The notes: a model not told the origin generated them from the letters alone. DNA of 64,000 nt from Anthoceros angustus (GCA_010909165.1 MU008176.1:1-64000), one strand, 5' to 3'; shown: positions 12,310 to 63,418, counted from the stretch's first letter. Numbers and translations are program-made.

Positions 12310-12552
12310 TCGCCATCCATGCGCCACCCATGCGGTAACCCATCGACATGTCTTCGTCATCCATGCGCTTGGCGACGAACGCGGAAACCCATGCACATGC
12401 CTTCGCCATTCATGCGCCATCCATGCGGAAACCCATGGATAGGCCTTCGTCATTCAAGCGCCACCCATGCAGAAACCCATGGACATCACTTCGTCATCCA
12501 TGCACCACACTTGCAAAAACCAATGGCATGCCTTGGGCATCCATGCATCTTG
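12310..12552. repeat. ~44 bp tandem minisatellite, ~5.5 copies
   Basis: Unit approximately TCGYCATCCATGCGCCACCCATGCGGAAACCCATGGACATGCCT, repeated with substitutions. Confidence 0.75.
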
Positions 12553-12559
12553 AGCAACA

Positions 12560-16250: not shown

Positions 16251-16254
16251 ACAA

Positions 16255-18320
16255 ATCTACATGACATGCTGGGCTCCTTGTGATCGTCTTGGCAGGAGCC
16301 CAAGCGAAGTGATCCTTGAGTGCACGATGCCAAAGAAGATAGCGCAGGCGCAAAGGGCACAAGGGCCAAGGAGGAGTGGGAGGAGTCCCACCTGATCGGG
16401 ACTAGCTTGAAAATCGGTGGCTGGAAGGTCTTTGTTTAACGTGTGTATCTTTGGGAAAACCTGCGAAAGGAGCGTGCTAAGCATCCAAGATCGGAGATGA
16501 GGCCAGTTTGCTAAGGCCACTTCAGGAGGTCCAGCGACTGTTGGGGCTGCTTAAGATACTGCAGGAGGAAGAAAAAGATCACCAGCAGCATCCAGGTGAT
16601 TAAAATGTCGTGGAGCTTCATCCACCTGGCTTACGGCATAGCAGCATGTTGTGGAGCTAACCCTCCCACGTGAACGCAGTCAAGACTAAGGAAAGGGGGC
16701 CTACTAATCATACTGGCGTGAGCCTTACCCAGTAAGTCCCTGATGCATCCAAGATATCATGTTTTGAGTCTAAAATAGGGTTGGTAGTTCATCAACCCTA
16801 GGCTCGTATATGTTTTGATGCTTGTCTTTAGATAGAGCCTTGGTCAAGATGTCTGTGCATCATCGGTAGGCACATAGAGGATTTTAACTAGGCCCCTCTC
16901 AAAGAACATCTCCGATATAGTGGTGGTGAACTTCAATGTGTTTCCGGTGGGCGGGGATTGGCAACAAGAGCAATGGCAGATTGATTATCGCAGTACAGGT
17001 GAGTAGGACCTGTTTGTGTCTGCCCAAGGTCATGGAGGAAGGACCGCTCCCATTCCACTTCTTTCGTAGCATCCGTCAATGATTTATACTCAACTTCCGT
17101 ACTTGACAGAGCAGTACTCGTCTGTTTTTTACAGCTCTAATTGATGGTGGCCTGTGCTAGAATAAAAACATATGTGGAGAGACTCTTGCGGGAGTCACTA
17201 TCCGAGGCCCAGTCTGCATCCGTGTACCCCTCAAGCACAAGGTGAGACTGTCCAGTGCGCTTATAGCATAAACCAAAGTAGTGTGTGCCTTTAAGATAGC
17301 GAAAAATTCTTTTCACAGCTGTCCAATGGGCACGTCCCGGATTGTCAAGAAATTGTGAGACAGTACTAATAGGTCTTTGCACATCGTCTCGATTCTTGTG
17401 AAGATCGAGTTTATGACGACAATAGAACTGTCGAGCATGTCATCCTTATCGGAATCATTACAGGGGCTCGTATACAGTAAGTTTCGCTGCGAGTAGTGGA
17501 TGGGCCTGTCCCATGTTAAATCGATGTAGAATTTCCGCTATATACTTGTGTTGATGTATGATAAGCGATCCTACCGATCAGAACCCTCAAGACTGGATTC
17601 CTAAGCGAATAACGAGTCACTGCTTGTCGATCATCTCAAAGGTGTTCCTTAATGTATATAGCGTGTGATGATGGCGAGATTCTTGGCTGCAAGTATCACA
17701 TCATCGACGTAGAGTGCTAGGAGAACATAGGAAGATCCATCTCGAAACACATAAACATTCGAGTCAGCTTTGCACTGTGTGAAACCCAGAGACTTCAGGG
17801 CAGTATCACATCTTTTGTACCAGCGTTCAGCACTTTGTTTAAGTCCGTACAGGCATTTGATTAACAAGCAGACGTGGTCAGGGTATTCACGGTCAACAGT
17901 TATAGGGACTTATCAAAATCCTGTGTCCTGACTTGTTTTTTATGTGTCAGGTCTTAGTCTCTGTGGCCACTCATGTTATTCATCATGAAAGCAGACCCCT
18001 GCACAATGTCAGCACTGAACTGAGTTTTTCCCATATGGTCCGCGTTCCTGAAGTTGAGTTGGTATTATCGAGTTCCTTGGTTGTAGTCTGGCCATGTTGG
18101 ATGATCTTTAATCTTATGGGTTTTATTCTTGGTGGGAGGCATGGGGTTTTGGTTGCAAACATACCTCCTGAAAGCAGTGGCCAAGGCATCCAGATGGATA
18201 CTAGCAGACCAATGACAGGGTGTTCTTGTGAAATTCCATATGTTGACAAGGTTGATTCTTTGGCTGTTTGTTTGTTTTCATTTCTTTTGGAGTTTCCTGA
18301 TTGTGTTCATCTTGGCAGAT
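16255..18320 (-). mobile_element. second, tandem copy of the same copia RT-RNase H segment plus integrase-RT linker
   Basis: 16270-17900 parallels 14600-16250, with the same KCLYGLKQS/YVDD and YTDADWASDSDSRKS motifs. 17930-18320 resembles a copia integrase-RT linker. Confidence 0.85.
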
Positions 18321-19505: not shown

Positions 19506-19996
19506 TTTCCATGTACAAATAATTGAGGGACAAAGTATATATGTTGAAATGAGGCGCCGGCCTCATCCCTCATTTTTCTTCTTCTTCTTCATCATGCCCT
19601 TATGCTCCCCATGCTCCTTGTTTTTGATAGCCATGGAGAAGCCATCACGTTCGGGTTTCTTAGCCACTAGCCTAGGGTGTCTAGCATGTTGAGCGGTCAG
19701 GAGAAGCCATTACAGTTCGTAGTTTTCGGCGAAGGAAGTGTTTGTTGGACGTCCGGTCATTGCCAAAGGCCATGAATCTTGGCGCCGGCATCGGCGCCCA
19801 CGTAACCTTTGAGCATGACTTGGGCGCCGGCATGGCGCCTAGGTGTGTCACTTACGGCGTGTTTAGGGTCTTCACGCCCTCGGTTTGTACACAATGACAT
19901 CGACCGTATGCGGATTGGATGTATAGCACGCATATAGAAATAGCCGTATGCATTCCCTTGATCTTCTGCGAGATGGTCGCCCATGTTCATTTCTTG

Positions 19997-22900
19997 TTGT
20001 TTAACGAATGGCATGCACTAACGACATGGGCATCATTTCCATTGAAAACAATGGTCTACCAGAGGTCAAATCCTTCGCTCTACCATTGTAAGCCGCTAAA
20101 ATATATAAAATTCTCTCGACACCCTAATTGTGTGCCTTCTTGCGGTATGCTCAAATACACATTTCAATGCCATCGAAACCCGTTTGCGTATATTCACGTC
20201 AAAAGCCGCTTGATGTATATTCAGCCGCTTCAAATATTATCTTTGTTAGGTAGGTAGCACCTTTGGATATCGTATTGCGACATGTAGCAAATGGAAATGG
20301 AAGTGGCTTTGAGGCGGCTTCTTGAGATCTCAGTGCAGGGGTGGAGTATGATAGAAAGAAAATGGAGCATAAAAGTTTGGGCAACCAGCCCAAAAGAGCC
20401 AAGACGAACCGGTTTAATTTTTTTTGGCTAAAAGCGATTGAAGGGAGCATGTCAGAAATTTTAAGGAAGCTTGGGTTGGAGTTGTAGGATATTGTTAGGA
20501 AGCTACGGACGGATATCCCGGGAGAGAGCGGGTCGAAACGACCCCCAGGCGGGAAAGGCGGTCAGAAGATCGGTGGGGGTGGGACTCTGGCCGTGAGGGG
20601 CGTGGGGGAGAAAGGAGGCGGACTACGGCGGTGGCGGAACTACATGACAAGCTGACGAAATCTCGGCTAAAAAGGGAAATTAGAATAGAAGGGGGATATC
20701 CACTATATATGCTCATCAATAAGGGAATAAATATATAAGGTAATTAAGCGATTAATTAGAGATAGTAGGCAAAATAGGAAATAGGCAGCATAGATAGGAT
20801 TAGGATTTTGGAATGATGGGCTGATCTAGGGTTGTGCGGCCTCGGTGCAGCCATCCAAAGAAGGCAAAGTGCGTTGGGCGGCAACTTCCTCTTGAGGCGT
20901 CCTCACTCCATGTTGGAGGCCGGAGGCGTAAGGAGAAGGAGAAAAGCGGACATTACTGGCCTTGTGGAATGGGGTTTGCATCCAGAAGATGCAAGAGGCC
21001 ACATTACCCTCTGTCGTTATAGTCCTAAGATTCGATCCCAAGGGAATGGTTTTGTGCCAAGATGTTCTAAAACTATGGACTCTAGCCCTACCACGATCGA
21101 TCACTACCCCTCCTTATTCATGCCCAAATCCACCACGTGGAGACAACCACCGTAGTGGGTGGTTCAACCTGTGGCGGGCCCCGCAGTCGCCCTCGTGTCG
21201 GGTGACTATATTGTCACCGGCTTCTAGCCTTGATCCTTGGGGCTATGGACATACACACACCATGCACCCTTGGCCAGGGTGGCGATCGGATCTTTTCCGG
21301 GGTTATGCCACGACCTCGAATGCATGGCGCCTTCCGCCGCTAGTTCCCCAGTTCCGCCACTCTTCCACTCTTCGCTCATTCCCATTTCCCCCACGCACAC
21401 AATCCCTTGGCGCACTCAACTCTCCTTTGGGACCTTCCACTCCCAAATAAATCTTCTCTCCCCTCCACCTTGGGCCACAGACCCCTCTCGGGCCCTCTTG
21501 GGGACCCCTCTTGGGCCACCAGACCCCCTCTAGGAATAAAACACGCTGGGCGGCTTGGGAAGGAAGAGCAGGAAGAAAATAGTGGTGCGCGTCCGGCGAT
21601 TCGCCTCGACCCTCGCGGCAATTCCTACCTCTTCCGTTGTTTAACGAATGGCATGCACTAACGACATGGGCATCATTTCCATTGAAAACAATGGTCTACA
21701 GTAGGTCAAATCCTTCGTCTACCATTGTAAGCCGCTAAAATATATAAAATTCTACGACACCCTAATTGTGTGCCTTCTTCAGGTATGCTCAAATACACAT
21801 TTCAATGCCCATCGAAACCCTGCTGCGTGATATTCACGCTAAAAGCCGCTTGATGTATATTCAGCCGCTCAAATATTATGTCGTGGTAGCACCTTTGATA
21901 TCGACAAAGATGTGATGCAAATGGAAATGGAAGTGGCTTTGAGCAGCGGCTTGCTGAGATCTCCCGAGTACGGGAATTGGAGTATGATAGAAAGAAACAG
22001 TGTGGAACGCAAAAGTTTGGGCAACCAGCCCAAAAGAGCCCGAAGACGAACCAGTTTAATTTTTTTTGGCTAAAAACGATTGAAGGGGAGCATGTCAGGA
22101 AATTTTCTGGGAAGCTTGGAGTTGGAGTTGTAGGATATTGTTAGGAAAGCTTGACATCCCAGATAGAGAATCCGGTCGAACGACCTGTGCGAGAGCGGGA
22201 AAGGCTCCAAAGATCGGGGCGCATCACCGCCGTAGGGTTGCCACCCCTCACGCCGGTAGGTCGAGAAAGGAGGCGACTATCACAGTCGCGACTACCGCGG
22301 TAGGTCACTCAAATCTCGCTAAAAGGGAAATTAGAATAGAGGGGGGATATCCACTGTATATGCTCATCAATAGGGGAATAAATATATAAGGTAATTAGAA
22401 GGCGATTAATTAGAGATAGTAGGCAAAATAGGAAATAGGCAGCATAGATAGGATTAGGATTTTGGAATGATGGGCCAGATCTAGGGTTGTGCGGCCTCCA
22501 GGTGGCAGCCATCCAAAGAAGGCAAAGTGCAGTTTGGGGCAGCGCCAACTTCCTCTTCGAGCTGAGGCGTCCTCACTCCGCGAAGAGCTGGAGCTGGAAC
22601 TGGAGCGTAAGAGGAGAAGGAGAGAAAAGCGGACATTGCGCGCTGTGGAATGGGGTTTTGCATCCGAAGATGCAAAGAGGCCACATTTACCCTCTATGTC
22701 GTTATAGTCCTAAGATTCGATCCCAAGGGAATGGTTTTGTGCCAAGATGTTCTAAAACTATGGACTCTAGCCCCACCACGATCGATCACTACCCCTCCAG
22801 ATTCGCCACCATGCCCAAATCCACCACCGTGGAGACTCAACCACCGTAGTGGCTGGTTCAACCATCGTAGCGGGTCCACCCATGCGCCTGCGGTCGCTGG

Positions 22901-36297: not shown

Positions 36298-36540
36298 TGA
36301 AGGATCGTGGGGCCATGCTGGTGGAAGAGGAGAGGAGGAGGCAAGAGTAGCTCTCTCATTGAGATGAGGCTTGGAGGGTATTTATACCTCCAATAGGCTC
36401 CCTAGGAAGCTCCACAAGAAGCTCCTAGGAAGGAGCACAAGAAGCTTCCTAGTGATTAGCTTAAGCTAAACTAATGATATCGACACCTAACTTAGACTAA
36501 GTGTATTAGTCTAAGTACATTGGGCTTTAATACCCTTACA
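36298..36540 (-). repeat. 3' LTR of the copia element
   Basis: TGAAGGATCG...CCCTTACA, near-identical to 41306-41557 and adjacent to PPT ACCTCCC. Confidence 0.9.
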
Positions 36541-39500: not shown

Positions 39501-40439
39501 TCAAGTAAGAAGAGATAAGGACATCTCCGTCCTCAACAGTTTAACTCTTCCAACTCGATGCATTTAAGTCGCCTTCTTGTCTCGCTTCTTCTCTTTCCTT
39601 GGTCCTTTTGAACTTCTTCTCTTTGAAGTGACCCTTTGTGACAATAGTGACACTCCACATTCTTGTTACGACTACGAGATTTGCTACGAGAAAGCATCCG
39701 TTGCTTCCCTTCGCAGGGACCTCCCTCTCACTATGAGGGCACCGGAACCTTTGGAAGGTTCCATGTTTTTCCTGCTCACCTCCTCGTTAACAGCTACCTT
39801 CTACATTTACAATGGTAAGACCACTAGCGAGGCAATTACTCAACATGCAGTGTCCCAACTCTCCGTAATGTGACCAATGAAACATAGCTCTCACGGAATC
39901 AGGAACGTGATACCTTGAGATGAGAGTGGCTGAAAATGGTATTGAAATCATTCGGATGATCGGACATCCTCGTCCCTTCCTTCATCTTCAAGTCCACCAT
40001 TTGTTTCAACCAATACACCGAGAAGCCGCACTTTGCTTCTCATACAGTCACTACCACGCCCGCGATCAGTAACTCGTGGTCTTATCTTTCACATTGAAGT
40101 ACACTGCTTTTGACAATGTTAGCATGATAGTAGATCTAGCAAGCTCATCCAGTCCCGCCACTCATCCCGTCATACTATCCGGTTTGACGCCTAACAACTT
40201 TATGGGCTTGATGCTTTTTACACTAGAACATTATACACTTGTTCTTTCCGAGCGGGAAGTTAGTACCATCTAACTTCTCGATATTGAACATGACGCTCGA
40301 CGATGAAGACATCATGACTCAAAAATCGATACATTAAACACTCAACTCGCCTTGTTAGAAAAGTCAAAGAAAAGCGATCCGTGCGGTCGTATTTTGTCGT
40401 TGAGTATTCCACCCGAATGTCGGCGAATTTTCTCGCCAC

Positions 40440-41190
40440 CGCCCGCTGGCGCGCCGCGGGCGCGCCGCGCTGCGCGCGCCGCGCCGCGCGCCGGGCGCCC
40501 GCGCGCTGCGCCGCGCGCCGCGCCGCGCGCCGCGCGCGCGCGCGGCCGCGCCCGCGGCCGCGCGCCAAGGCTGCGCCCGCGGCGCGCAAGGCCGCCCGCG
40601 GGCGCCGCGCGCTGCTGCACGCGCGCTGGCGGCGCCACGCGCTGCCAAGGCCGCGGGCGCTGCGGCGCGCCGGGCTCGCGCGCGCGCGCGCGGCTCGCGC
40701 CAAGGCGCGGGCGCGGCTCGCGCTGGCCGCGCGCCGCTGGCGCTGCGCGCCAAGGCCGCGGGCGCTGCGGCGCTGCGCGCTGCTGCGCTGGCGCTCAAGG
40801 CGCGGGCGCGCGCGCTGCGGGCGCGCTCAAGGCTGCGGGCGCTGCGCTCATGGGCCTCGGCGCGCGGGCGCCAAGGCGGCGCCGCGCCAAGGCCGCCCGC
40901 TGGCGCGCCGCGGGCGCTGCGCGCGCCGCGGGCGGCTGCGGCCGGCGCCACGCGCTGCGCCGGGCTGCGGCCGCGCCGGGCGCGCCGCGCGCGCCGCTGG
41001 CCGCGCCCGCGCGCTGCGCCGGGCGCTGCGCCCGGCCGCGGCCGCGCCGGCCGCGCGCCGCGGCTCGCGCCCGCGGCCGCGCTCGCGCGCTGCGCCGGCG
41101 CGCGCTCGCGCCGCGGCTCGCGCCTGCCCGCGCGCGCCGCGCTGCGCGCCGCGGGCGCGCGCGGCCGGGCGCGCCGCGCGCTGCGCGCGC
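40440..41190. repeat. extreme GC low-complexity tract in the copia 5' UTR
   Basis: About 750 bp almost entirely of GCGC/CCGC/GCTGC with a few CCAAGG islands. It lies between the PBS and the gag start. Confidence 0.85.
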
Positions 41191-41305
41191 GGTCTTGCCT
41201 CGCCACGCCTCATCTCGCCGCATCCGCAGCCTCGCCGCGATCCGATCACCCGCAGCCTAGAAAATTCTAGCATCACAACACAGCAAACCAAGGCTCGATA
41301 CCGCT

Positions 41306-41557
41306 TGAAGGATCGTGGCAGCCATGGTGGAAGAGGAGAGGAGGAGGCAAGAGTAGCTCTCTCACATTGAGATGAGGCTTGGAGGGTATTTATACCTCCA
41401 ATAGGGCTCCTAGAAGCTCCTAGGAAGCTCCACAAGAAGCTCCTAGGAAGGAGCACAAGAAGCTTCCTAGTGATTAGCTTAAGCTAATGATACTTAATCG
41501 ACACCTAACTTAGACTAAGTGTATTAGTCTAAGTATATTGGGCTTTAATACCCTACT
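41306..41557 (-). repeat. 5' LTR of the copia element
   Basis: Matches 36298-36540. It follows GCTCGATACCGCT, the reverse complement of a TGGTATCAGAGC-like PBS. Confidence 0.9.
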
Positions 41558-47812: not shown

Positions 47813-48610
47813 TTAAGCGCCGGGGGTGAAGTTGGTGGCATAAGCCCAAGCATTGTTGACAGTGGGATCAGCCAAATGGTCAGAAAGGTTCTCGATGGGG
47901 CCCTTTCCAGTGACGATGGCCTGGACGTAGAAACCGAACATGGAGAACATGGCCAGCCGCCCGTTCTTCAGCTCCTTCACCTTGAGCTCAGCGAAGGTGT
48001 CGGGGTCGTCAGCCAGACCCAAGGGGTCGAACGAGCCTCCGGGGTACAGGGGATCGCTCACATCACCCAACGGTCCTCCAGCCACACGGTAAGCCTCCAC
48101 AGCTCCCATGAGGATCACCTGGGTAGCCCAGATTGCCAGAATGCTCTGAGCGTGAACCAGGCTCGGGTTCCCCAGATAATCCAGCCCGCCCTCAGCGAAG
48201 ATCTGAGACCCAGCCTTGAACCACACGGACTCTCCGAAGGAAACCCCGTTCCTGGCCAGAAGCTCGGGGGTGACGCAACCCAATGTTCCCAGCATCGCCC
48301 ACCGAGCATGAATCACCTCAAGCTCCCGGTTCCTGGCGAATGTCTCAGGATCGGCGGACAATCCAGCAGTGTCCCAGCCGTAGTCGCCGGGGAACTCTCC
48401 CTTCAGATAAGATGGCGTCTCGCCGGAGAAGGGTCCCAGCCACAGAGGCCGATCGGCCCCATACCAGATGCTGGAGCTGGAGCCGGCCGACTTCCTCATC
48501 TGGAGCTTGGACTCAGCGCTGCCTGCAGCATTCAGGATCTCGCTGCGCTGCCTGAACACAGTCTGCCCGGCGAGGGCAGCACTGGAGGCGCATGCTGTGG
48601 CGGCCGCCAT
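47813..48610 (-). CDS. Lhcb: major LHCII chlorophyll a/b-binding protein, copy 1, intronless, 265 aa
   Basis: Intact ORF with [51 protein letters not shown] and [29 protein letters not shown]. Confidence 0.98.
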
Positions 48611-50128
48611 TGCTACTGAGCTTCGAAATTCGAGGGATGGGGGGAGCTTGGCTAATGAGAGAACCGGCAGAGGGGAAGGACAGAACTGTTTGCTCCCTCA
48701 CGGAAGCCTCTGTATGTGTACTCACTCTTGGTCTCGCCTGATTCGCTGCCGGTGGATAGGATAGGGCTGATATTCTTCGCATCAGATAGCGCTCCGGGAT
48801 TGGGCATTTCTAGCATCGCCACGCTTGCCGTTTCCCAGGCTCTCAGACCCTGCTAGACTGGTGGCTCCCAGGCTCCGAGCATGTGGAATCTCGATTCGAG
48901 CGTGTCGAATTTTTACATACCATCAAAACAAGAGAAGAAGAAGAATTTTATTGAAGTCCACTAAGGACAGATTTCCGTCAAGGGACTTGGAACTTAACAA
49001 CTTGTACCCTGGTGTGCCTAAGCTACTTGCACCAATGGCATCCACTCCCTTTAGCCACCCCATCTAACTACCGATCTAAGCTCAGGATGCTTAATCACCA
49101 GGTTCTTATAAATGTGTGTCCATTTGGACACACATAAGAGTATCTACCCTGTACGCATCAGTTGCATGATTATTTAGTTTTTGAACTAAGGTCTTCCAAG
49201 ACACGAATGAGGAAAGGGGTAGGTAGTCAGATTAATGTGTTCATGTGTGCATCCATGCGCATGGCTTGGCATGGATATGTGTCCCCATAAGCATGTGTGA
49301 TGTGTGTGTGATGTATGTGCGGTGTGCATCAAGAGGGCAAACCATCTGTGAGTCACGGCGGTATTATTGCCCAATCACCGGCAACGGGCGATATGGCGCG
49401 ATTCGGAGTTGAGCGTCACGGCGCCCGATGCGGACACCCGCGATTCAGCAAGAACGCCGAGTGCGTGGGTAGATAAAGGGCTAGAGGCCGCGTAGGAAGT
49501 TGGATTGCTGATGTTTGTTCGATTGAACAGCCATACGGATCCCGGGGTTCTTTCATGGTGCGAGCTCTAGTAAAGGGAGAGTGAGGGCTTTTTGCCAAGA
49601 TTCAGGCGAGAACATATTTTCAGATCAGCAATCCCTTTTCGGAGCTTAGCCTGGCAGCTGCATCAAAGAACGGCGGATGACCCAGGCGGAACGCCGACGG
49701 AAGGACCGTGACACAACCAAGATAAGTCAATGGTGGAAGTTTATGAGAATGCTATAGATTATTCTGTGTTGTCTTATGCGGGTCGATCCATTCTTCACCT
49801 GGCCGCCTTGGCGGAACTAGAACCTGCGTATCTATGGCAGAGACTGTGGGACGAAGTGATTGACAAGCTGGCCTGGCTAACGGACTGGACTCAAGGAGGC
49901 ACCAACACCGACTTTGATGGAATGCCGTACATAGTCTCTCACAGAGGAAGAGAGTGAGAGGGTGATGGTGTTTCTACGCTCTGGTTGGACAAACGAAAGA
50001 CACCCATTCAAGAAGCTCGCAGTCCTACTGTCCAATATCCCTCAGTCTATAGGCTAGGTGGTCGGTTTGAGTGGAGTCAAAGCCCCATCCGCTCCATCAC
50101 ATTTGAAGAAAGTTGTGGCGGAGCAAGA

Positions 50129-50860
50129 ATGGAGTACGAGGCAGCGCCCAGCAAGAATGATGTGTTCACCGGTCGGCATGGTAGCATGTCACTTGCCGAC
50201 TTTGAAGAGAAGTTCAGGTGGGCAATCGATGAGATGGTGCTCAAATACAAATCTGAGTTCACACCCGAAATGGCGTTAAGAAAAATGAGCACCTTCCTAG
50301 AAGGGGAAGCGCTGACTTGTTACAGGGACTGCAAGGATCAAATCTTGCAAGATACACGGACTTTGGCGAGGGCAAGAAGGGCCAAGAAGATGTCAAAGGG
50401 AAGTGAAGAGGAGGAGGCGTCCAGCTCTATGCAAGGTGATGCAATCACGTATCTAGTGATGAAATGTTTGCCAAGTTTGGGGAGATGTTTCCGGTGTCCT
50501 CCATAGAAAAGATCCAAGAACTGTCAAAGTTCGTCATCAAGCCCAATGAACCTCTCAGGTCCGCCTACCAAGTTAAGGCAATTGGTGAAGGATACACGAG
50601 TGAAGACGATGCGAGAAGCTGCCCAGATATACATAGCCGCGCTTCCGGGCAGACAAAGGAGAGTGATCGCCAATTTCCTTCACATGATGCACGGTGCTGA
50701 TTATGAGTTGGAGCAGGCCTACGAGATGGCTGAAAAGGTCATGAAAGGTGATGCTGTGACCAGCGCGTACCGGGAAGAACATAACCTAGTCAGGACACAT
50801 CAACCTGCCTCGAACACACACCGGTTCCAAGGAAGAAACATGCCTCGTGAGCCGACGTAG
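50129..50860 (+). pseudogene. gag-like region
   Basis: VFTGRHGSMSLADFEEKF..STFLEGEALTCY..FGEMFPVSSIEKIQELSKFVIKPNEPLRSAY..YIAALP..LEQAYEMAEK fits the retrotransposon capsid pattern. Frameshifted. Confidence 0.6.
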
Positions 50861-51449
50861 GCAAGCGCTATGCGAAGGAGTTCACCCACTAAGGAGCGCC
50901 AACGATGACGCTGAGGCAACGGTAAAGTGCCTCACGTGGGGCCGATAAAGCCTTCGAAATATATCGACTCGATGGAGCAAAGGAAAAGGAGGCATGCAGA
51001 GCCTATGCCAAGACAGGGCACACGGAGGCAAAGATGTCGGCAGGCACCCCAATTCAAACCTAAAGCATCTGAGGCGGGTCGCGACAAAGCTAAGCCGATG
51101 TGGTTATACCCGGAAAGCGTTTAGCGGCGCACAGCCGCAAGAACCGGCAATGGGCATGAGTGCGACAGGGAGTCCAAGTGCGCCTATCGAAGAATATGAC
51201 TCGGACACGGAGGTATACGCATTGATGGCCCCAAGGGCAGCGGCTGGTGAGAACGTCAGCACGAGCTTGGGAGATTTTATTCAAAGGAAGAAGTCTGAGG
51301 AAAGAAACTTCGTGCAAGCCTGGATGAGGAAGGAGTCTCTGGGAGGAGGCGTGGTACCTGGACTTGTTAGTTTACGAGGTGATCATCTAAAACCGACAGC
51401 GTGAGGCAAAGGAGGCATCGCCATGGTGAACAATCGTAACCGGAAATCA

Positions 51450-51720
51450 CCGCGATGGCTTCGCTGTATCGCTTGGTCGACACCGTGTGGATCCGGCAAG
51501 GCGGTGGCAGCAGCGCCAACCGTATGGAAGTAAGTCGGGTTAAGGCGAGGTGCGATCACCACCTCCGCAGGGACTAAGGAGCAGGTGATTGGCATAACTC
51601 GCGATCCAGTACGAATCGAGCTCAAACTAGGCACCGAAGACTCCACTGTCATTGAAGTGCGATGCTTAGTGTCTGATGCCAGAAATTACGACGTGTTGCT
51701 CGGTGCTGACGCCACTCATG
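51450..51720 (+). pseudogene. aspartic protease domain
   Basis: LVDT(G) at ~51471-51485 and VRCLVSDARNYDVLLGAD at ~51655-51710. Confidence 0.7.
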
Positions 51721-52121
51721 GTCCGGCGATGGGGGTGGACCCATTGCACCCGTAGCCTTACACCACGATGGCAAGGAAGGAGATTTCACATGTGGCGAGG
51801 ATACCATTGGACATGCGCGGCGGATGAATAAATGTTATGATGGCACTTCACAAAGATGTGGCGCAGAAGTGCATCAAGTGAGGTATGGGAGGAAAACCAG
51901 GACCTGATGAGGGAGGAAGTACAGGACGAACGACAAGTCGGAAAATGCATGCATGTCAAGACAACTCCTATGTTGTCGCTGCATTGGCAAGAGGCGGTTC
52001 GAAAGGATGCCCAAGGCATGGCAGTGGTAGTGGCGCTTGGAGGGCTACTTGTCACCGCACCCCCGAATAAGGCGGACTGCGAATCAACAATGATGTGGTA
52101 CGATGGCAGGCGGACACACGT

Positions 52122-53045
52122 GGGATTCACCTCATGGAGCTATGCTCCGGCATCAGCAGCGGGCTTGAAGCCGTGTTGAAAAGTGGGTTGCGGGTGAGAA
52201 AATACACGTGTGTTGAGTTGGATGAGAAGGCACGTGCGGTGGCCAGATCAAGGATCGTTAGACTGCAAAGGAAGTATGCTGGATTGATAAGCATCGAAGC
52301 AATCAAGGGTTGTCAAAGCAGATTGCCTCCGGACATCATGTTGGTAGGGAAACGACAGCTTGAGGCAATCAGGTGTACTGTAGACATGCTAATCGCAGGA
52401 TGGGAGTGCCAGACATTTTCCAGAGCCGGTCGCGGTTATGGTAACGGTGTAGAGATGGCCGCGGAAGTGATCCGAATCCTAAGGGAAGTACAGTTGATCA
52501 ATCCAGATTGCTGGTACATTTTGGAGAATGTGTGTGGAGCGTTTGATAGGCGTGAGAACGTCAGAAAGGACTATGAGCGGCTCAGGAGATGGTTGGGTGA
52601 AGGATTCATCATCAATGCAGCACAGACTGGGTCGTATGCTCACCGAGTATGAAGTTTTTGGACAAACGTGGCCGGAGTGGAAGTCCTTAAGCAGCATCGA
52701 GCATTGACAGTGCCAGTAGAATAGTGTGTGGATGAAATTCTGGAGGCAGGTCGATGCTCACAGCCAGTGCACAGAAAGGATAGACCGCCACACTTTCCAG
52801 TCAACACGGTGGGTACTACAAGAAAGGCGTGACCCACACTGGTAAGGACTGCACAATCATACGCGTTTCAGAGAGGCGGAGATGGCATGGTATTGGATAT
52901 GAATGGAAATGAAATCGGGAGCCCATGATAAGGGAACGAACGAGCTATGGATTCAGCGGTACCTTCACGCACGGTGTCTCCGAAGCATACCGGTGCAAGC
53001 TGGTGGGACAGGCATTTGATCTCACCTGCTTGCAATGGCTATTAA
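52122..53045 (+). pseudogene. C5-cytosine DNA methyltransferase domain inside pol
   Basis: Motif I LMELCSGISSG (52131-52163), II CVELD, IV MLIAGWECQTFSRAG (Cys 52407-52409), VI YILENV (ENV 52524-52532), VIII AQTGSYAHRV*SFWTN, TRD ..PTLVRTAQSYAF, IX P.IRER..AMGF, X KLVGQAFDLTCL. In-frame stops at 52650, 52722 and 52830, and frameshifts near 52920-52950. Confidence 0.9.
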
Positions 53046-53299
53046 TCAGGGGCATGGCCACCCATGGCCGGGATAGCGTCTTTGCAACGATTGTCAAGAC
53101 GACGCTTTCGAAGCAAAGCAAGGAGCTGCGCATGAGTGCCGCAAGTAGACGCCATCACGGGACAGAAATAATCTAAGGGAAACGCATGAGTGGCGGTGAC
53201 GGTGAAGAATCGGAGGAGGTCGATCGAAAAGATTCGAACATGTTGCAACGACAACCGGCTTTTGATTCACCGAATGAGCCGGGCGATATGACAAAGTAA

Positions 53300-54075
53300 A
53301 GTTCAAGATCACCACCACCACCAATGAGCTCATATTCCGATGGAGGCATAAGTTGAGTCCCATGGAATGGGAGATTGTGGATAAACGATGCAAGGAGTTG
53401 GCAGCGGCTGGGTTGATCACGAAGTCAACTTCTCAATACGCTGTTGCCATGGTGTTACCATTGAAGAAGGACGAAAATGGTGAATGGAAGGACAGGCGGA
53501 TGTGCGGGGACTATCGTGCACTGAACGAAGTCACGCCCATGGAACGGTACCCCATGCCCACTCCTGATGAAATTTTTGATGCCATAGGGCGGGCCAAGTA
53601 TTTCACCACATTGGACTTTCGATCCGGATTCAACCAGATTGTCATTGAGGAAGGAGACAAGTGCAAGACAGCGTTCTGGGGTAAGGATCAGCTTTGGGAG
53701 TGGGAAACGATGCCGTTTGGCTTGAAGAACGCATCTATATATTTTCAGCGGGTGGCTGACTTAGAACTGCAAGGACTGCCATTCGTGAGGTGCTATATAG
53801 ACGATATCCTGGTGTTTAGTAATACATTGGAGGAGCATCTTGAACACCTGGAAGTCCTGCTGCAGAGACTGGCCAAATCGGGGCTGAAAGCACACCCAAG
53901 AAAATGCAAGTTCGCCTATAAAGAGATAGAATATTTGGGACATAAGATTGTTCCAGGTGGGGTGCTGCCTCAGTTGGCCAAGGTGCAGGCGGTGAACCTC
54001 ATGCCCAGACCCAAAGATGTAGCCACCTTGAGGGCCTTCCTAGGGCTTGTCAACTACTATCACGTTTCAATGTAA
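53300..54075 (+). pseudogene. Ty3/gypsy reverse transcriptase
   Basis: RRMCGDYRALN..YPMP..FTTLDFRSGFNQI..KTAFW..WETMPFGLKNA..FQR..CYIDDILVFS..KCKF..EYLGH..LRAFLGLVNYY. Confidence 0.97.
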
Positions 54076-54099
54076 ACATGAGTGGAACTCGCAGCGCCG

Positions 54100-55424
54100 T
54101 ATGAACCGCTCAAGAAAGGTGCACGGCAAAGGGTCGCAGGAACAAGCATGGCAAGAGCTAAAGGACCAGTTGACGGAGAGGCCAATTCTCAGAAGGCCCA
54201 ACTTTGATAAACCCTTCATCTTACATACGGACTGGAGTACCGGATTGGAGCAAAGGCACAACAGATGAAGAGGGGAAGGAGCGAGTTGTCGCATACGCAA
54301 GCAGGTCCAATAATGCAGCAGAAGCAATTTATTTATCTTATGAAGGCGAATGCTTAGCAAGGCATGGTGTTGCATTTCGAGTAGTATTTGGCCTCGAAGC
54401 TTTTGTTATGACCACGCCACCACATCGCTAATGACGAACATGAAATTAAGCGGAAAGCTTGCTAGATGGGCGCTTTTGCTTTCAGAATATGATATGCAAA
54501 TCGTGCACCGAGCAGGCAAGGTGCATCTTAATGCTGATGGGCTCAGCAGGAACCCGGTGTGCAACGAGGGAGACATGACAGAAGCAAGACATGACTTGGG
54601 ACTCACCCAGAATCTGCCCAGCTTGTATATGGCACTAATGTCCATTGAAGAAAAAGATGAAGGACAACTGGCTGAAGGAGGACGAGACATATGGAAAAAC
54701 AAGCAAGCCATACAGCTGCTGCAACAGGGGCATGTGGCTGGTTTGGACACAGCTGCGCTTAGAAGGCTACAGCAAAGAATAAGCCGATATAGTTACACAG
54801 GCGGCAAGGTATTTGTGAACAATCGTGGGATTCTCAAAGAAGTGCCACCATTGGAGGACAGGAAGCAGCTGGTGACCAAGGTGCATAAGACGCTCGGTCA
54901 CTTTGGTATCAAACGAACGCATCATATGCTCAAGAATGCATACTCGTCGTATGTATCGACGTTGAAAAGGTAGTTATGCGCTGGTCAGATGCGAAAAGCC
55001 GATTTATGCCCAAGATGTGATGCTGCACTCACTGCCTATCAGAGGGCTTTTCTTCAGATGGTCCGTGGACTTGATGCCTGAGCTGCCAGTTACCAGACAG
55101 GGCAATCGACATTGCATGCTAATGATAGAACACTTCTCGAAGTGGGTGGAGTCAGCCTTCCTTCCGGTCAGAAGCTCACAGTACACTGCTCTAGCATTTT
55201 TGCAATGTGTCCTTAGTAGATATGGGAGTTGTGCCGAAGTGTTGACAGATCAAGGTAATGAATTCAGAGTTTTCATTGACCGTTTAGCCCCGATTGATCA
55301 CAAAGTGACACGAGACCATCCACAAGCAGATGGGTTAGCGGAACAGTTGGTTCAGACCTTCAAGGATTCGCTTCGCAAGTACTGTACCGAAATTGAGCCT
55401 CGAATCCCGGTAGGGACATTATAA
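54100..55424 (+). pseudogene. RNase H and integrase, integrase C-terminally truncated
   Basis: PFILHTDWS, VVAYASRS..YEGECLA, KLARWALLLSEYD..HRAGKVHLNADGLSR, HKTLGHFGIKRT, RWSVDL..IEHFSKWVE..VLTDQGNEF..HPQADGLAE. Confidence 0.93.
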
Positions 55425-56359
55425 ACGCCGCCATCTTGTACAAACAACTTAACGTCTACCACTTTTTCCCATTGCGTTTGGGTTTATTCTAAACACCGAA
55501 CATAATGACTTTCCCTGTTACTTGCCTGCACTGCAGACATTAGGAACTTAACAACGTTTTTATGAAGAATGGTTTTATATGGTCGGTGACTGTAATGCCT
55601 GAAACGGCCTCCATGGAAGGCTAAGACGTTCCAACCTATCGAATGCTGGAAGGAACCTTGCCTTCTTTCATTTCCTCCACCACCGTCCAACCTCGAAAGA
55701 CGCCCAACAAAATGCTTCGCGCCACTCACTGCATAGACGACGCCGATGTCACCAGAGTGCTTACTAACGCCGCCATCGATGCGTTCGTGCACATGTTCTC
55801 ATTCCCCTGCTTGATTGTGCATACATCATGGATGGTGAGGTTCAATCCCAATATGAAAGAGAACTTCCTGAAGTGCAACGGACGAGGAGAAGAGCAGACT
55901 TGAACGCCCACCGGGCGCGCCAGACAGCCACATAGATATCATCAGCCTCCCACGAGGCACGGGCGGCCAAGGTGTGCTTACTCACTTGCATTCTCATGGA
56001 GGTTGGATTTGTGAATTTAATCATCGATCAGAAGTCTATGGCATACCCGCACTGACATCGACCGCCGACATCGCCGGCCATCGGCCTCCCTACCATTCCG
56101 AGGTGCCTGCCACGGACATCAAGAAATCTTAACCCAGATGCCACCTGAGGGATCCCCATGCAAACAACGAGTGAGCAAGCGCGCAAGAAACCAAGCCACT
56201 CACAAAGTTGCTCAATGCGAGGCTTGTTCACCGCGGTGGAGTCCTAAGATGCACCATCGCACGATCAAGAATGCGGCAATACGAATGAGGAGGCGACGAT
56301 TTTAGCACTTCAAGATCGGCGACCGCCATCTTATCACCCCAAACCAAAGGAGTGAGACT

Positions 56360-57991
56360 TTGTCCGCATACTACGAGTCGTGCCAAAAGAGGCGAAGTGG
56401 AGTCCCAATGAGGAAATGTGAAGTGGAAAGCATCAACATTGATTTCGAAAAGGCATGTTGCAATCAGATGTGTCTCTACAGATTGACAAAAGAAAGGTTT
56501 CGTGAACAACGGTATTGCTCTTTACGGATGGGGAGGCAGGAGCAAGAAACATTTTTGGAATCCCTGATACAGGTTGTACGACAAGAGCAGGGTAACGCCA
56601 AAGTTATTACTCATCTGGGCCGGATCCTTCCGGCGTCGCTATGCGCCTTCGTAAGAGTGTATTGCCTACCACAGTATGAAGAGTTGAAGAGTAGAGTCAT
56701 CAATGCACTGTGATGCCATGAGGTCAATCCAAAATGCAGCCTCACCATGCCTTAAGTGCAATAGCCCGGATGGACAATGCTTTCCCGAACAACATGGTAG
56801 AGACTTCCAAATATCGAGGTCTTCAACCTACCCGACACATACACAAAACTAAAAATTTGGGGTGAATATAGGCGGCATTGTGAACAAAGAGGACAGCGGT
56901 ATGTGACTTACGCCTGGTTCTTGAAGCTATGGAAAGGGCACTTCAACAGGGTAAAGATTCCAAAGTCCAACAGATTCTCTACTTGCTCGCTCTGCGCTGG
57001 ATTGAAAACAATTATACGAAATACAATCTCAAAGGTTGATCAAGGTAAGTAACATTCTTTTCCTTATCCCATGTTTTCCAAAGATATCGAGGGTGGTTGA
57101 CCGCGTAGGCCAAACCCTCAATGGCACAGTACTGTGTTATGTCTACTATGTCAATATGCCCCCCCGCTTCCAGTGACAGGTGCCGAGGTGGACGCCGGCT
57201 GACCGGCGCCCACCATACGTCTCTTACCATACGTCCATAGCATTATGTGTGGACGGGTCCCCTGGTCATGAGGGTGCCGGCCGGCCGACGCCCTGCTCGG
57301 GTAACCCATGCATGTGCCTATCACATTGCTTGGGCCCCGCCATGCCGAAGGCCCGTCGGCTATTACCCTGTCGAGCTTGCAGTAATGAGGTCAGGTCCTC
57401 GCGAGCGCCGGCTGGCCGGCGCCCCCAACCACATTACAAGTATTCTTTGCAGACTACGAGGAAGGCGGATATGCTCATCGGTTCGCCCAGGCCTTGTATC
57501 CTGCCTTCCCTGCATTTGGAAATGCCTAACAAATATGTTCCGCCCATTATATCCTTTGTGGTCGATCATAGGGAGAGTGGGGAGGGGTGAGGAAGGTGAA
57601 GTTGGCGTTGTCAATGCCGTAGGCACATCCCGCAGGGTGATGCTGGCAACGTTGATTGCTGGACATCATACTGTGTTTTTAATCTTGGAAGTTGTCAACT
57701 TTAAAGGGACTCAAATACTATGGTGTGAATATGTTATGTGCAGAGAAATATCAAACAGCATTGGACGCCCACCGCAAGTGACTTTTAGCAGAGCGTGCGA
57801 AGATGACAAAACACCGGAGCAAGAGTTATGTGGAACCACATAAGTATATGTTACTATGTATCGATGGCATGGACCAGAAGAAGACAGAGATACCGCACAT
57901 GTTGAGGTGGCCAAAAAACCTAGACGAGGAATGTCGCATTTTCGTTCACGTGGTCGGTTGCATGATCCACAACTATACCCACAAAGCTTGA
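56360..57991 (+). pseudogene. DNA-transposon transposase (DUF7869/Sola-like, family assignment inferred), with intron 57045-57743, C-terminally truncated
   Basis: KACCNQMCL.., then PDTYTKLKIWGEYRRHC..VTYAWFLKLWKGHFNRVKIPKSNRFSTCSLC. The splice CAAG|GTAAGT...GTGCAG|AG keeps the frame into EKYQTALDAHRK*LLAERAKMTKHRSKSYVEPHKYMLLCIDGMDQKKTEIP. Confidence 0.7.
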
Positions 57992-58803
57992 GTCGTTCGT
58001 ATGGGACAAGACAAACATGAACAATGACAGGGGTGGATTTGAGACTGTGGAATACATAACTATCGGTTGGGGTGTGAAGGATGGGAGCAAAAAGGACAGA
58101 ATTGCAATGCTACCAAATGCTATGCAGGGAACTTTCAACAATGGAAGGTCCGTCATTGCTCATGACACAGTTGTCAAAAAACAGGTTTACATGTCACATG
58201 ACAAGTTGGTGGTCTGCCCTTACCAGAGACCACTTGGGTTGATGATGAAACTCATTAAAACCTTCTCCAAAGAGGGAGATTGGGTTCTGGATGCATGCTG
58301 TGGGAGCCGCAGCGTTACTTACAGGAAGGAATTGTATCGCCATCGAGGCTGACTTGAGATGTGCAGGTTATATTTCACAAAGAATTCATGGATTTGAGGT
58401 GCTTCCAGACGTAGTTGAAGAGTTGAATTTTGAAGCTCACCGGAGAGGACTTGCACAGTTCTGAGCAAAGGAGGTTTGCATTAGCGAGAAGGACTCCTTG
58501 AAAGCACAAGTGGTTTCTTTGAGTGCCCGCCGGAATAAGACCAGGACTGGAAATTTGTTGGAGGCTGGCCAACAAACACTAGATAACGCTTGGCAGTCTG
58601 GGGCGGATGTTAATGATGAAGAAACATATGGGAACGAGGACTCGAGGGCTTTGGTTGAAATCGACAATTTCGATGAGGAAGAACTTGAGCGGATACGAAA
58701 CTTGGCTGTAGTTTATGATTCGGTGTCAGCGCAAGCACCGGTTGAGTCACAAGTTAGCCCAGACGTGTTGAGGTTTGTAGCTATGAACTGTTGTATGTGC
58801 TAG
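57990..58803 (+). pseudogene. beta-class N4-cytosine/N6-adenine DNA methyltransferase, C-terminal half, with acidic tail
   Basis: ESFVWDK..EYITIGW, then CPYQRPLGLMMKLIKTFSKEGDWVLDACCGS. After a frameshift at ~58306 it reads AAALLTGRNCIAIEADLRCAGYISQRI. This parallels HPxQKPxxLxxxLIxxxSxxGDxVLDPFxGSGTTxxAAxxxGRxxIGIE. The frame continues through TGA 58462 into the acidic ORF 58498-58803. Confidence 0.8.
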
Positions 58804-59235
58804 TGGTCAATTTTGGCGGAACCTTAAACAGGGATGATCTCCAACTTGCTTGGAGACAGCCGTACCCATACCTAGTTCTTTTGTGTGATTACTAGGCCTT
58901 TTGTCAGTGTGAAAATGGATCAACGTACAAAACGCACTTCCTATGACCACTGAAGGCGCCGGCCGGCCAGCGCCCTTAACCCTTTCTTCCAGTTTTCTTT
59001 TTTCACAAACTGCGCATTCAGCTCTAGGAATCATTGTCCATGGTATGGGACACCTACAAACCCGAAAAAACACGGTTTTTGGAACCATGTGTTATTAGTG
59101 AAGGAGGTTTCGTTCAACCAAAAGGGGGTTCAGAGATTCACCCCCTTCACTGAATAGCATGTTAAGAGCTCCCATGGGAGGAGAACCCGTCTCGGAAGGA
59201 CGAAGAACAGGGATGACTACACCGGAAGGAACCTT

Positions 59236-59314
59236 ACCTACCACTGTAGGTTAGATACCTACCACAGTAGGTGATAGACCTACCATGGTAGGAGAGATAC
59301 CTACTGGTGTAGGT
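59236..59314. repeat. four 21 bp tandem units, each a mini-palindrome ACCTAC-N4-GTAGG(T/A)
   Basis: ACCTAC at 59236, 59257, 59278 and 59299. The + strand frame encodes (E/D)(I/R)PTxVG with one TAG. Confidence 0.85.
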
Positions 59315-60011
59315 CAGCAAGAGGAAGCAGCAAGTGAAGGGGCTGTGAAGGGAAGTGCAATGCCAAGGGAAGCAGCTTGATTCTAAAAAGATTCCCAGCT
59401 TGATTCTTCTTAGAATCAAGCTGAGATTCTTCAACACTTAGTTTTATTAGCACAAGGCTACCATAGTCTTTTGGAAAAAGTAAAATTTTCTATCACCAGA
59501 TTGTCTAAGAAGATCCTCCAGAAAAATACATTAATGTAGTAAATATTACTATGCATTATGATAATATTTACTGCATTATAATATTTACTACAGTGATACA
59601 TATGCAATTGTACAGATAAAAAAATTTGTTGAAAACAGCCTAACCTTTTTATGGGAGCCACTATCCAATGAAAAATGATAGGTCTCATGTGCCAAAATCA
59701 AACGCTCATCCTCTTTGGACAAGAAATAACACTCAAGGCCGTTCTCATCTACAATACCGCATAAAGGCAGCCTGAGCACAATGAAAAATCCCATGAAATA
59801 CGTTGATGACACGTGTAGCAACCCCGAGCCGACATACATTTTCGCATTAGGATGTGGTTGAACCCACGGACAAAAGACATAAACCCAACAGCAATACAAC
59901 AAAACGAGCATGAGGAAACTAGAAGGCTAAAAATCATCTATGAATTTCTAGGCTGAATGTATGAATGAAAATGAAAAAAAATCAAAAATTAAAATTTAAA
60001 ATTATTGGAAC

Positions 60012-60105: not shown

Positions 60106-60538
60106 ACGGCTGGCTTACAAATTCAGCCTAGAAAGATGACTGCGAAAGGAAATCCCCACCCAGTTTGCGCATATGGCACAGTCCTTTTCCATTGGCCCGG
60201 ACGCCAGTGCTGCTCGGAAAGCCACAAGACGAGAATCTTGCTTCGTGTGGTGCGAATGCCAGAAAGCACAAATCTTCCTTTCACCACTATGTTGCAACGT
60301 TGCCTGATAGGCTATCGGAGATGAAATTCATTCACGAACACAAGCCTCCTGCTGTTGCTGATGTTTTATCCTGGTTGGATAGGACTCGGAAATCTCGGGG
60401 CCCGGTTTTATCACATCGGGCCCGTATAAAGTGGATGCCCATCCCTTCAAATTGCAGTACACTTGTTGCCTTGTACCCCGGCTCTCCCCCTCCCTTCCAC
60501 TGCCATCCCCGTGTCCGCTCCCTTCGAGCAACGCAGCC

Positions 60539-61431
60539 ATGGCCGCCGCTACAGCGTGCGCATCCAGCGTCGCCCTGGCAGGGCAGAGCGTCTTCAGGCA
60601 GCGCAACGAGATCCTGGAAGCGGCCGGCGCCGGCGAGGCGAGGCTGCAGATGAGGAAATCGGCCGGATCCAGCTCAAGCATTTGGTGGGTTTGCTTCCTC
60701 GGTCTCGGTTTGATAGAAATCTCGTTTTGGGCGATAGTGTGATTGCCAATGCTGACCGGCATTGCTTCCGTCTGTGCAGGTATGGTGCTGACCGCCCTCT
60801 GTGGCTGGGACCCTTTTCTGGCGAGACTCCATCTTACCTGAAGGGAGAGTTCCCAGGCGACTACGGCTGGGACACTGCCGGATTGTCTGCCGATCCCGAG
60901 ACATTCGCCAGGAACCGGGAGCTGGAGGTGATTCATGCTCGGTGGGCGATGCTGGGAACGTTGGGCTGCGTCACCCCCGAGCTTCTGGCCAGGAACGGGG
61001 TCTCCTTCGGCGAGTCCGTTTGGTTCAAGGCTGGGTCTCAGATCTTCGCTGAGGGCGGGCTGGATTATCTGGGGAACCCGAGCCTGGTTCACGCTCAGAG
61101 CATTCTGGCCATCTGGGCTACCCAAGTGATCCTCATGGGAGCTGTGGAGGCTTACCGTGTGGCTGGAGGACCGTTGGGTGAGGTGAGCGATCCCCTGTAC
61201 CCCGGAGGCTCGTTCGACCCCTTGGGTCTGGCCGACGACCCCGACACCTTCGCTGAGCTCAAGGTGAAGGAGCTGAAGAACGGGCGGCTGGCCATGTTCT
61301 CCATGTTCGGCTTCTACGTCCAGGCCATCGTCACTGGAAAGGGCCCCATCGAGAACCTTTCCGATCACTTGGCTGATCCCAGTGTGAACAATGCCTGGGC
61401 ATATGCCACCAACTTCACCCCCGGCGCTTAG
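60539..61431 (+). CDS. Lhcb: major LHCII chlorophyll a/b-binding protein, copy 2; exons 60539-60684 and 60780-61431, 265 aa
   Basis: ATG at 60539. A 95 nt GT-AG intron (60685-60779) splits the Trp codon of SSIW|YG. The rest is nearly identical to copies 1 and 3. Confidence 0.97.
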
Positions 61432-62614: not shown

Positions 62615-63418
62615 ATGGCTGCGACAGCCACAGCATGCGCCTCCAGTTCTGCCCTCGCAGGGCAGACTGTCTTCAAGCAGCGCAGCGAGATCTTGAATGC
62701 CGCAGGCAGCGCTGAGTCCAGGCTGCAGATGAGGAAGTCGGCTGCCAGCTCCAGCTCCAGCATCTGGTACGGTGCCGACCGGCCTCTGTGGCTGGGACCC
62801 TTTTCTGGCGAGACTCCATCTTACCTGAAGGGAGAGTTCCCGGGCGACTACGGCTGGGACACTGCAGGATTGTCCGCCGATCCCGAGACATTCGCCAGGA
62901 ACCGTGAGCTGGAGGTGATTCATGCTCGGTGGGCGATGCTGGGAACACTGGGTTGCGTCACCCCCGAGCTTCTGGCCAGGAACGGGGTCTCCTTCGGCGA
63001 GTCCGTGTGGTTCAAGGCTGGGTCTCAGATCTTCGCTGAGGGCGGGCTGGATTATCTGGGGAACCCGAGCCTGGTTCACGCTCAGAGCATTCTGGCAATC
63101 TGGGCTACCCAAGTGATCCTCATGGGAGCTGTGGAGGCTTACCGTGTGGCTGGAGGACCGTTGGGTGAGGTGAGCGATCCCCTGTACCCCGGAGGCTCGT
63201 TCGACCCCTTGGGTCTGGCTGACGATCCCGACACCTTCGCTGAGCTCAAGGTGAAGGAGCTGAAGAATGGGCGGCTGGCTATGTTCTCCATGTTCGGCTT
63301 CTACGTCCAGGCCATCGTCACTGGAAAGGGCCCCATCGAGAACCTTTCTGACCACTTGGCTGATCCGACTGTCAACAATGCTTGGGCTTATGCCACCAAC
63401 TTCACCCCCGGCGCTTAA
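62615..63418 (+). CDS. Lhcb: major LHCII chlorophyll a/b-binding protein, copy 3, intronless, 267 aa
   Basis: ATG at 62615 ([17 protein letters not shown]) aligns with the starts of the other two copies. Intact to TAA 63418. Confidence 0.98.

Follow-up and report, generated by a model that had tools for sequence, protein, structure and literature searches.

The 64,000-nucleotide stretch analysed here (GCA_010909165.1 MU008176.1:1-64000, hereafter the window) carries a dead copy of what is very probably a Ty3/gypsy retrotransposon, truncated at its 3' end, which occupies 50129 to about 55403 of the plus strand and has a DNMT3-like C5 cytosine DNA methyltransferase (DNMT) domain between its protease and its reverse transcriptase (RT). 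The order gag-protease-DNMT-RT-RNase H-integrase is preserved in pieces, and includes the protease-RT-RNase H-integrase order by which a Ty3/gypsy Pol is recognized. A preliminary description of this DNA, made from the sequence alone, had reported a gypsy Pol with C5-DNMT motifs between protease and RT-RNase H-integrase on one strand, and every motif that it named was found in its place. Our wider reading, in which the dead DNMT-bearing copy sits in the genome of a likely seed-free land plant and intact members of its family likely methylate their own complementary DNA (cDNA), seems to us probable as a whole.

The DNMT domain spans 52098-53071 (+). The check on PF00145 that the preliminary description had proposed gave a match of 27.6 bits (E 2.5e-6; cut-off 22) in a 193-residue frame at 52071-52649. 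Motifs I, IV, VI, VIII, IX and X follow one another in order, with the catalytic Cys and Glu present: ELCSGISSG starts at 52137, AGWECQ has its Cys at 52407, ENV has its Glu at 52524, motif VIII runs up to the in-frame stop at 52650 that interrupts it, and LVGQAFDL lies at 53000-53023 in a second frame. Besides the stop at 52650, those at 52722 and 52830 were confirmed as first described; the several frameshifts placed at about 52920-52950 reduced to a single frame break near 52914. A hidden Markov model (HMM) of the family, built from 175 homologues with the window excluded, gave 52098-52949 a score of 268.6 bits and the C-terminal piece (52910-53071) one of 13.5 bits, while 20 codon-shuffled copies of the region scored ≤0 bits.

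An AlphaFold model of the first 285 residues of the domain, in which the stops were read as X and 39 homologues were supplied, had a mean predicted local distance difference test score (pLDDT) of 87. All 35 Foldseek matches listed for this model were to DNMT3A or DNMT3B, with template modeling (TM) scores of about 0.5-0.6. Among 48,161 representative chains, the top VIA-align match was DNMT3B (Z 17.0, root-mean-square deviation 2.9, 224 aligned), with M.MpeI (14.1), HhaI (12.4), MET1 (11.4), ZMET2 (11.3) and DNMT5 (10.6) lower. The family profile searched against the PDB likewise scored DNMT3A (95 bits) above DRM (64), HhaI (44) and DNMT2 (26). As modeled, then, the domain is an unrearranged DNMT3-like C5 methyltransferase, closest to DNMT3 by fold and by profile scores. 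These structure Z scores and profile scores ruled out a MET1, CMT or DNMT2 identity, and a fresh transfer from phage or bacteria was also ruled out, the best phage methylase reaching 59 bits and 29% identity.

When representatives of clusters at 50% identity were searched, 865 relatives fell within an E-value of 0.001, the best 150 of which were listed; with 31 proteins from further searches, 181 were examined. The DNMT lay between RNase H and integrase in 97 of them and between protease and RT in 21, as in the window; 57 were too short to be assigned to either order, and 6 had no DNMT. A PHD finger was frequent with the RNase H-DNMT-integrase order (41 RT-RNase H-DNMT-integrase-PHD proteins, plus other PHD-bearing ones), the bearers of this second arrangement including Chlamydomonas eustigma CEUSTIGMA_g13882. 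Three intact proteins, here called P0024 (2188 residues), P0295 and P0300, are single open reading frames with the order zf-CCHC-protease-DNMT-RT-RNase H-integrase. The window is collinear with residues 968-2081 of P0024 from DNMT through RT and RNase H to integrase, and 450 of the 1062 aligned residues (42%) are identical. Names were looked up for 20 of the 150 listed homologues (865 found), and six clusters proved to carry organism names: five were from Closterium and one from Klebsormidium nitens (GAQ93235.1).

Phylogenies of RT and DNMT gave the same picture. In a 67-row RT tree, whose set lacked the K. nitens RT, the window grouped with eight protease-DNMT-RT rows with a support of 99 in the Shimodaira-Hasegawa-like approximate likelihood ratio test (SH-aLRT). 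The DNMT trees comprised retroelement homologues only, without cellular DNMTs; in the larger one (174 rows, domains of >160 residues) a single branch divided the two arrangements, with the window on the protease-DNMT-RT side (SH-aLRT 99). A 39-row DNMT tree recovered the split at 99/97 and left the window's sister unsettled, its bootstrap not having fully converged. Judged from these sequences, RT and DNMT descend together within a protease-DNMT-RT group that includes Klebsormidium and Closterium. Because both domains fall in that group, the element is not a separate land-plant invention, and the land-plant lineage of retroelements suggested at first is in this respect overstated. The RT and DNMT trees are unrooted, and fit one capture followed by relocation as well as two captures.

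The agreement of the trees also answers the idea that the DNMT is a separate insertion into an otherwise ordinary Gypsy copy, taken either from a host DNMT3 or, recently, from bacteria or phage, a possibility that the preliminary description had itself raised. The weak phage methylase matches noted above could be taken to favor it; the retroelement homologues, however, score up to 169 bits, the intact polyproteins have the DNMT at the same position, and the domain in the window is intronless, with no separate ends of its own. The idea is largely refuted, and we give it almost no weight.

Viral contigs searched with the window RT gave no match. A metagenome locus that was the sole match to the DNMT query was rejected as a chance hit in bacterial-looking DNA, which none of the 181 family-search proteins matched. 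In one homologue, P0027, a family DNMT immediately follows a Gag domain of Copia type (PF14223, E 1.6e-17); this DNMT is identical to that of P0026, which has a preceding protease. P0027 may be a nested insertion or a chimera.

Motif IV of the window reads Glu-Cys (WEC) rather than the Pro-Cys dipeptide expected of C5 methyltransferases. The preliminary description had recorded WEC with the Cys kept, and was right in this; the feature is not peculiar to this copy: Glu precedes the catalytic Cys in 106 of the 175 homologues and Pro in 56. WEC itself occurs in 16 of the 21 protease-DNMT-RT proteins. Glu being the commonest state among the homologues, a lesion peculiar to the window copy is ruled out, and the alignments make WEC the family norm in motif IV. 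The DNMT tree requires at least 15 changes between Glu and Pro before the Cys (counted with no shuffle control), so that the two look like tolerated states. The catalytic Cys is found in 173 of 175 homologues, the other two having gaps; every one of the 175 has the motif VI Glu, and the two Arg of motif VIII are present in 172 and 170, respectively. That the remaining catalytic residues are so well kept suggests that intact family members encode a working enzyme.

The window copy does not. Its gag capsid-like region (50129-50860, +) is marked by frame changes and stops; motifs recognized there by eye look Gag-like, a Pfam scan gave no match, and tblastn to the Gag of three homologues (P0012, P0101, P0071) was weak (E 0.03-0.6). 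Contigs related to gag, spanning 50164-50886, were found in X1; this run and X2, both from a single sample, are the only two public runs in which the region is partly represented, and no RNA dataset was listed for it. By eye, a degenerate CCHC zinc knuckle can be read at 50995-51040 (+), and intact relatives have a Pfam zf-CCHC at the corresponding position. The aspartyl protease (51473-51815, +) has its LVDT catalytic motif (51473-51484) and its C-half, with NYDVLLG at 51684-51704, in separate frames; the Pfam scan gave no match here either, while an HMM from 18 homologous proteases scored 45.6 bits (independent E-value 1.7e-15) on the C-half (51552-51815) and tblastn to P0012 gave 1e-8. Downstream of the DNMT, the RT (53281-54072, +; RVT_1 1.7e-30) is an open frame that retains the YIDD motif and is 47.5% identical to the RT of P0024, and RNase H (54101-54500, +; RT_RNaseH_2 1.7e-9, RT_RNaseH 1.8e-5) is spread over several frames with several breaks. 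The integrase (54840-55403, +) consists of the H2C2 zinc-binding part and the core (Integrase_H2C2 4.8e-5, rve 4.1e-8) with the 3' end cut off; homology stops ~100 residues early, the P0024 alignment ending at residue 2081 of 2188.

According to the reference chosen, aligning DNMT to integrase meant reading through 5-10 stops and allowing 7 frame breaks. Some of the frame breaks may be assembly errors, because seven of the eight long X1 contigs from the flanks show 21 gaps against the window but only 3 substitutions (the eighth, with 9 substitutions, was excluded). Even so, the in-frame stops and the 3' truncation mean that this copy is dead and unable to encode the whole enzyme. Rfam and tRNA scans of the window were empty. 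Just 5' of the element, at 48933-49127, lies a short, very high-copy repeat (strand not assigned), which is not shown to be a long terminal repeat (LTR); summed X1 contig depth is about 36,000 at 48991 compared with about 10 in the flanks, the repeat also occurs in X2, and no partner copy was found downstream in the window. It is possibly a miniature inverted-repeat transposable element or a short interspersed nuclear element.

The host was placed with NRDE2 (5047-9541, -), a gene with short introns. Its best matches were from Marchantia and Riccia (54-55%); a conifer, Selaginella, ferns and mosses came next, and none of the matches listed (120 of 173) was algal. Its identity to seed-free plants is 44-50% over 1060 columns, compared with 41-58% between seed-free plants of different groups, and its branch length of 0.67 is no longer than those of land plants. 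In a tree of 14 of the 120 listed matches, with no algal or hornwort row, it was placed in none of the four groups sampled, namely mosses (100/100), liverworts (100/100), ferns (100/99) and seed plants (100/100). NRDE2 thereby points to a likely origin in a seed-free land plant that lies apart from the mosses, liverworts and ferns of the tree. The gene has four intron-like gaps of 25-33 codons, and the window has a GC content near 50%; a GC content near 50% and short introns suit some algae too. Both values match figures given for hornworts (49.6% GC, 173-base mean introns) in the available part of PMC7027989. We hold a land plant to be very likely, and lean, less firmly, toward a hornwort.

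Evidence from the immediate flanks bears on whether element and host belong together. The nearest host gene is an intact, intronless Lhcb (LHCII) gene (47813-48610, -; PF00504 2.2e-51), whose best match among single-domain PDB chains was 8htu (487 bits, against 411 for 6kac); we take these chains to be from moss and Chlamydomonas, respectively. GC content is level across the element junctions, and flanking DNA near Lhcb has near-identical contigs in X1. There, near-identical contigs for the flanks occur together with diverged relatives of gag, protease, RT and integrase (55 contigs, 42 of them <95% alike); this combination suggests that the element family resides in the same organism as the flanks. 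Even at 80% likeness, no X1 contig covered 51851-53296 (the whole DNMT) or most of 49.2-57.7 kb, holes that prove nothing; no X1 contig joined across the DNMT, and X2 had no match on the element. The insertion may be absent from that sample, or many of the local relatives may have no DNMT. The Lhcb gene belongs to a cluster of three near-identical copies (with 60535-61431, +, and 62615-63418, +) that encloses ~11 kb of transposon DNA; only the middle copy has an intron, which follows the transit-peptide region, the other two being intronless.

Ty3/gypsy Gag-Pol is packaged and then cut by the protease, and cDNA is made inside the particle. A DNMT embedded in Pol would be produced one-to-one with RT and integrase, would enter the virus-like particle as part of Gag-Pol, and would be either freed by the protease or left attached to RT. 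There it could add 5-methylcytosine (5mC) to the cDNA ahead of integration. The likeliest site would be CG, on the analogy of DNMT3A and of SymbioDIRS-Dnmt3 of Symbiodinium, whose domains methylated CG de novo in yeast according to the sections of PMC5890265 available. A new copy would thus arrive pre-marked, as host-like or as self-limiting. By this analogy, we put the chances that intact members methylate their own cDNA before integration at about even.

A number of observations count against this account and against the host placement. The canonical motif IV Pro is absent from the window and from most of the family. The CpG observed/expected ratio in the element is 0.59-0.94, compared with 0.46 in host NRDE2; there is no special loss, no CpG or CHG depletion was found in the window element as a sign of self-methylation, and hence there is no footprint of it. 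KnitGypsy-Dnmt3, the DNMT-bearing Gypsy element of K. nitens, showed no activity in yeast, a result that its authors call inconclusive because DNMT3B also failed (PMC5890265, sections available). No LTR pair, terminal inverted repeat, primer-binding site, target-site duplication or other terminal repeat was found in the window, although no terminal-repeat pair is to be expected where the 3' end of the element is missing. There was no land-plant name among the 20 homologues looked up. As to the host, the NRDE2 tree included neither an algal nor a hornwort row, and approximately unbiased tests rejected none of the deep sister positions (p 0.13-0.43). Of the bryophyte-like flanks first described, the likely seed-free land plant stands, and a bryophyte proper is likely without being proven.

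The negative yeast test, the Glu-Cys of 106 homologues and the want of CpG depletion in the window copy would equally fit a domain that is retained without being a working cDNA methyltransferase, one that binds DNA or S-adenosylmethionine, shields cytosines or needs a host partner, with Glu marking the changed role. We consider this unlikely, given the near-invariance of the catalytic Cys, Glu and both Arg over 175 homologues and the repeated interchange of Glu and Pro on the DNMT tree, which gives them the look of tolerated states. Moreover, to judge from the FPC of GAQ93235.1, the K. nitens type tested in yeast probably carries Pro, so that its failure does not bear on Glu. Alternatively the enzyme may be active but do its useful work once integration has taken place, on the chromosomal DNA of its own element, of competing elements or of host loci, and not on particle cDNA. 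The PHD finger behind integrase in the sister arrangement points to chromatin, and self-limitation was raised as an option by de Mendoza et al. 2018 (PMC5890265, in the part available). Against this, the position in Pol ties the DNMT to particle stoichiometry, and intact protease-DNMT-RT polyproteins have no PHD or chromodomain match; a chromosomal target has, in our estimate, about the same small chance as a non-catalytic role.

Somewhat less probable still is that the element lies outside land plants, because the host is a streptophyte alga or because a foreign block (49.1-60 kb) has been attached to the Lhcb region. The nearest named relatives are algal, an alga would join the NRDE2 tree, which has no algal outgroup, at the same deep point, and the assembly seems to have indel errors, as the gaps against X1 indicate. 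However, the best NRDE2 matches are Marchantia and Riccia with no alga listed, NRDE2 is as similar to land plants as these are to one another, on a branch no longer than theirs, the run that matches the flanks also has relatives of the element's gag, protease, RT and integrase, and GC content is level across the junctions. We accordingly retain the reading of a dead DNMT-bearing copy in a likely seed-free land plant.

A bolder extension, which we offer tentatively and think doubtful, is that one Gypsy lineage acquired a DNMT3 before the chlorophyte/streptophyte split, kept it in two Pol positions and came ashore with plants, its enzymes being active cDNA methyltransferases, mostly with Glu-Cys. 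If this single capture were true, the DNMT would sit after RNase H in chlorophytes and before RT in streptophytes, hornworts would have kept it, and early land-plant genomes would have had an overlooked source of de novo 5mC. More generally, DNA methylation is the chief defence of plants against transposons, a relation that a transposon-borne de novo methyltransferase would invert. With 865 clusters at 50% identity, two domain orders, and members in Klebsormidium, Closterium and Chlamydomonas eustigma besides the present copy from a likely land plant, the family is large. It allows self-methylation of cDNA by retroelements to be tested in both green algae and bryophytes, and it provides a supposedly fixed motif with natural variants that have Glu-Cys. 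The window copy itself is a fossil, which adds a host record and no mechanism.

Several other features of the window are recorded here. A second Gypsy integrase fragment, related to the present family, lies at about 12500-13240 (-), with 107 tblastn matches from the homologues; it has an 81% nucleotide match over 52 bases to 55312-55363, and no adjoining DNMT. Downstream (3') of the Gypsy element, 56306-57988 (+) is a broken, intron-bearing gene with a Cys-rich stretch and an IDGMDQ motif, which had no Pfam match above cut-off and which we take to be transposase-like. Directly after this remnant, 57966-58460 (+) holds what is left of an N4-cytosine/N6-adenine DNA methyltransferase, its C-terminal half (PF01555, 31 bits, cut-off 26.7; Atlas 0.96). 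Phage methylases are 31-35% identical to this fragment, which is frameshifted and lacks the catalytic motif; X1 contig depth is several times the flank level, so that it may be multi-copy, and together with the transposase-like remnant it may represent a mobile element with a second kind of methyltransferase. Marchantia DN4MT1, as described in the available part of bioRxiv 2021.02.12.428880, is a possible, candidate link. Short GC-rich palindromic repeats occur at 57187-57425 and 58951-58976, and hairpin arrays at 59215-59597. Inside a Copia-like element, whose terminal repeats lie at about 36401-36536 and 41419-41554, ~800 bases (40400-41230) are almost purely G + C, in GCGC-rich units, and are either a real satellite or an assembly artefact. 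Tandem duplications at 15132-17869 and 19996-22804, with a period of about 1.65-1.68 kb and the first in a Copia RT region, are likewise real or assembly duplicates.

In the published work that we found, DNMT-bearing Gypsy elements are known from a single alga and regarded as a capture peculiar to its lineage: de Mendoza et al. 2018 reported a Dnmt3 in the Pol of a K. nitens Gypsy and its acquisition by that lineage (PMC5890265, sections available), and PMC12344493, in the part available, only repeats this report. The available portions of PMC10952607, on hornwort chromatin, and of PMC8075897 make no mention of DNMT-bearing Gypsy elements. The preliminary description held that such elements are not recognized in embryophyte genomes; in agreement with this, we found no paper on them in land plants, hornworts, Sphagnum or Closterium, in a search whose coverage took in few subscription journals. 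That both arrangements occur across green algae, that motif IV is most often Glu-Cys and that such elements are present in land plants all seem to be unpublished.

Compared with known systems, the window element shares with SymbioDIRS-Dnmt3 and SymbioLINE-Dnmt of Symbiodinium a retroelement-borne cytosine methyltransferase, of which only SymbioDIRS-Dnmt3 was shown to be active, at CG (PMC5890265, sections available); these belong to the tyrosine recombinase and LINE (long interspersed nuclear element) classes, and the likeness is by description only. Cellular DNMT3 (human DNMT3A/B) provides the best structural and profile matches and has the same unrearranged motif order, but the window domain is only about 21% identical to it, has no PWWP or ADD domain, sits in Pol and has Glu-Cys, plant DNMT3s, such as those of moss and liverwort, lying outside the comparison sets. 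Plant DRM differs in being permuted, and scores lower. The RNase H-DNMT-integrase(-PHD) polyproteins typified by CEUSTIGMA_g13882 have a DNMT of the same family (30-40% identity, mostly WEC or WPC), but there it follows RNase H, often with a PHD finger, and they form a separate group in both trees. Like KnitGypsy-Dnmt3, the window element has an intronless, unrearranged Dnmt3-type domain within a Gypsy Pol, and like K. nitens GAQ93235.1, which we infer to be KnitGypsy-Dnmt3, it has the order zf-CCHC-protease-DNMT and falls on the same side of the DNMT tree, with 32% identity over 272 residues; it differs in its likely land-plant host, in WEC rather than FPC, and in being dead and truncated, and the two were not supported as sisters in the 39-row tree. 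The K. nitens element also has terminal repeats of DIRS-like type. Domain order, WEC and RT group (SH-aLRT 99) are shared with the Closterium proteins GJP34393.1, CAI7886383.1, CAI5973665.1, CAI7911866.1 and CAI7859113.1 and with P0024 and P0300, all of them unannotated database proteins, from which the window nonetheless stands apart as a long separate branch, with about 43-48% identity in RT and 33-39% in DNMT.

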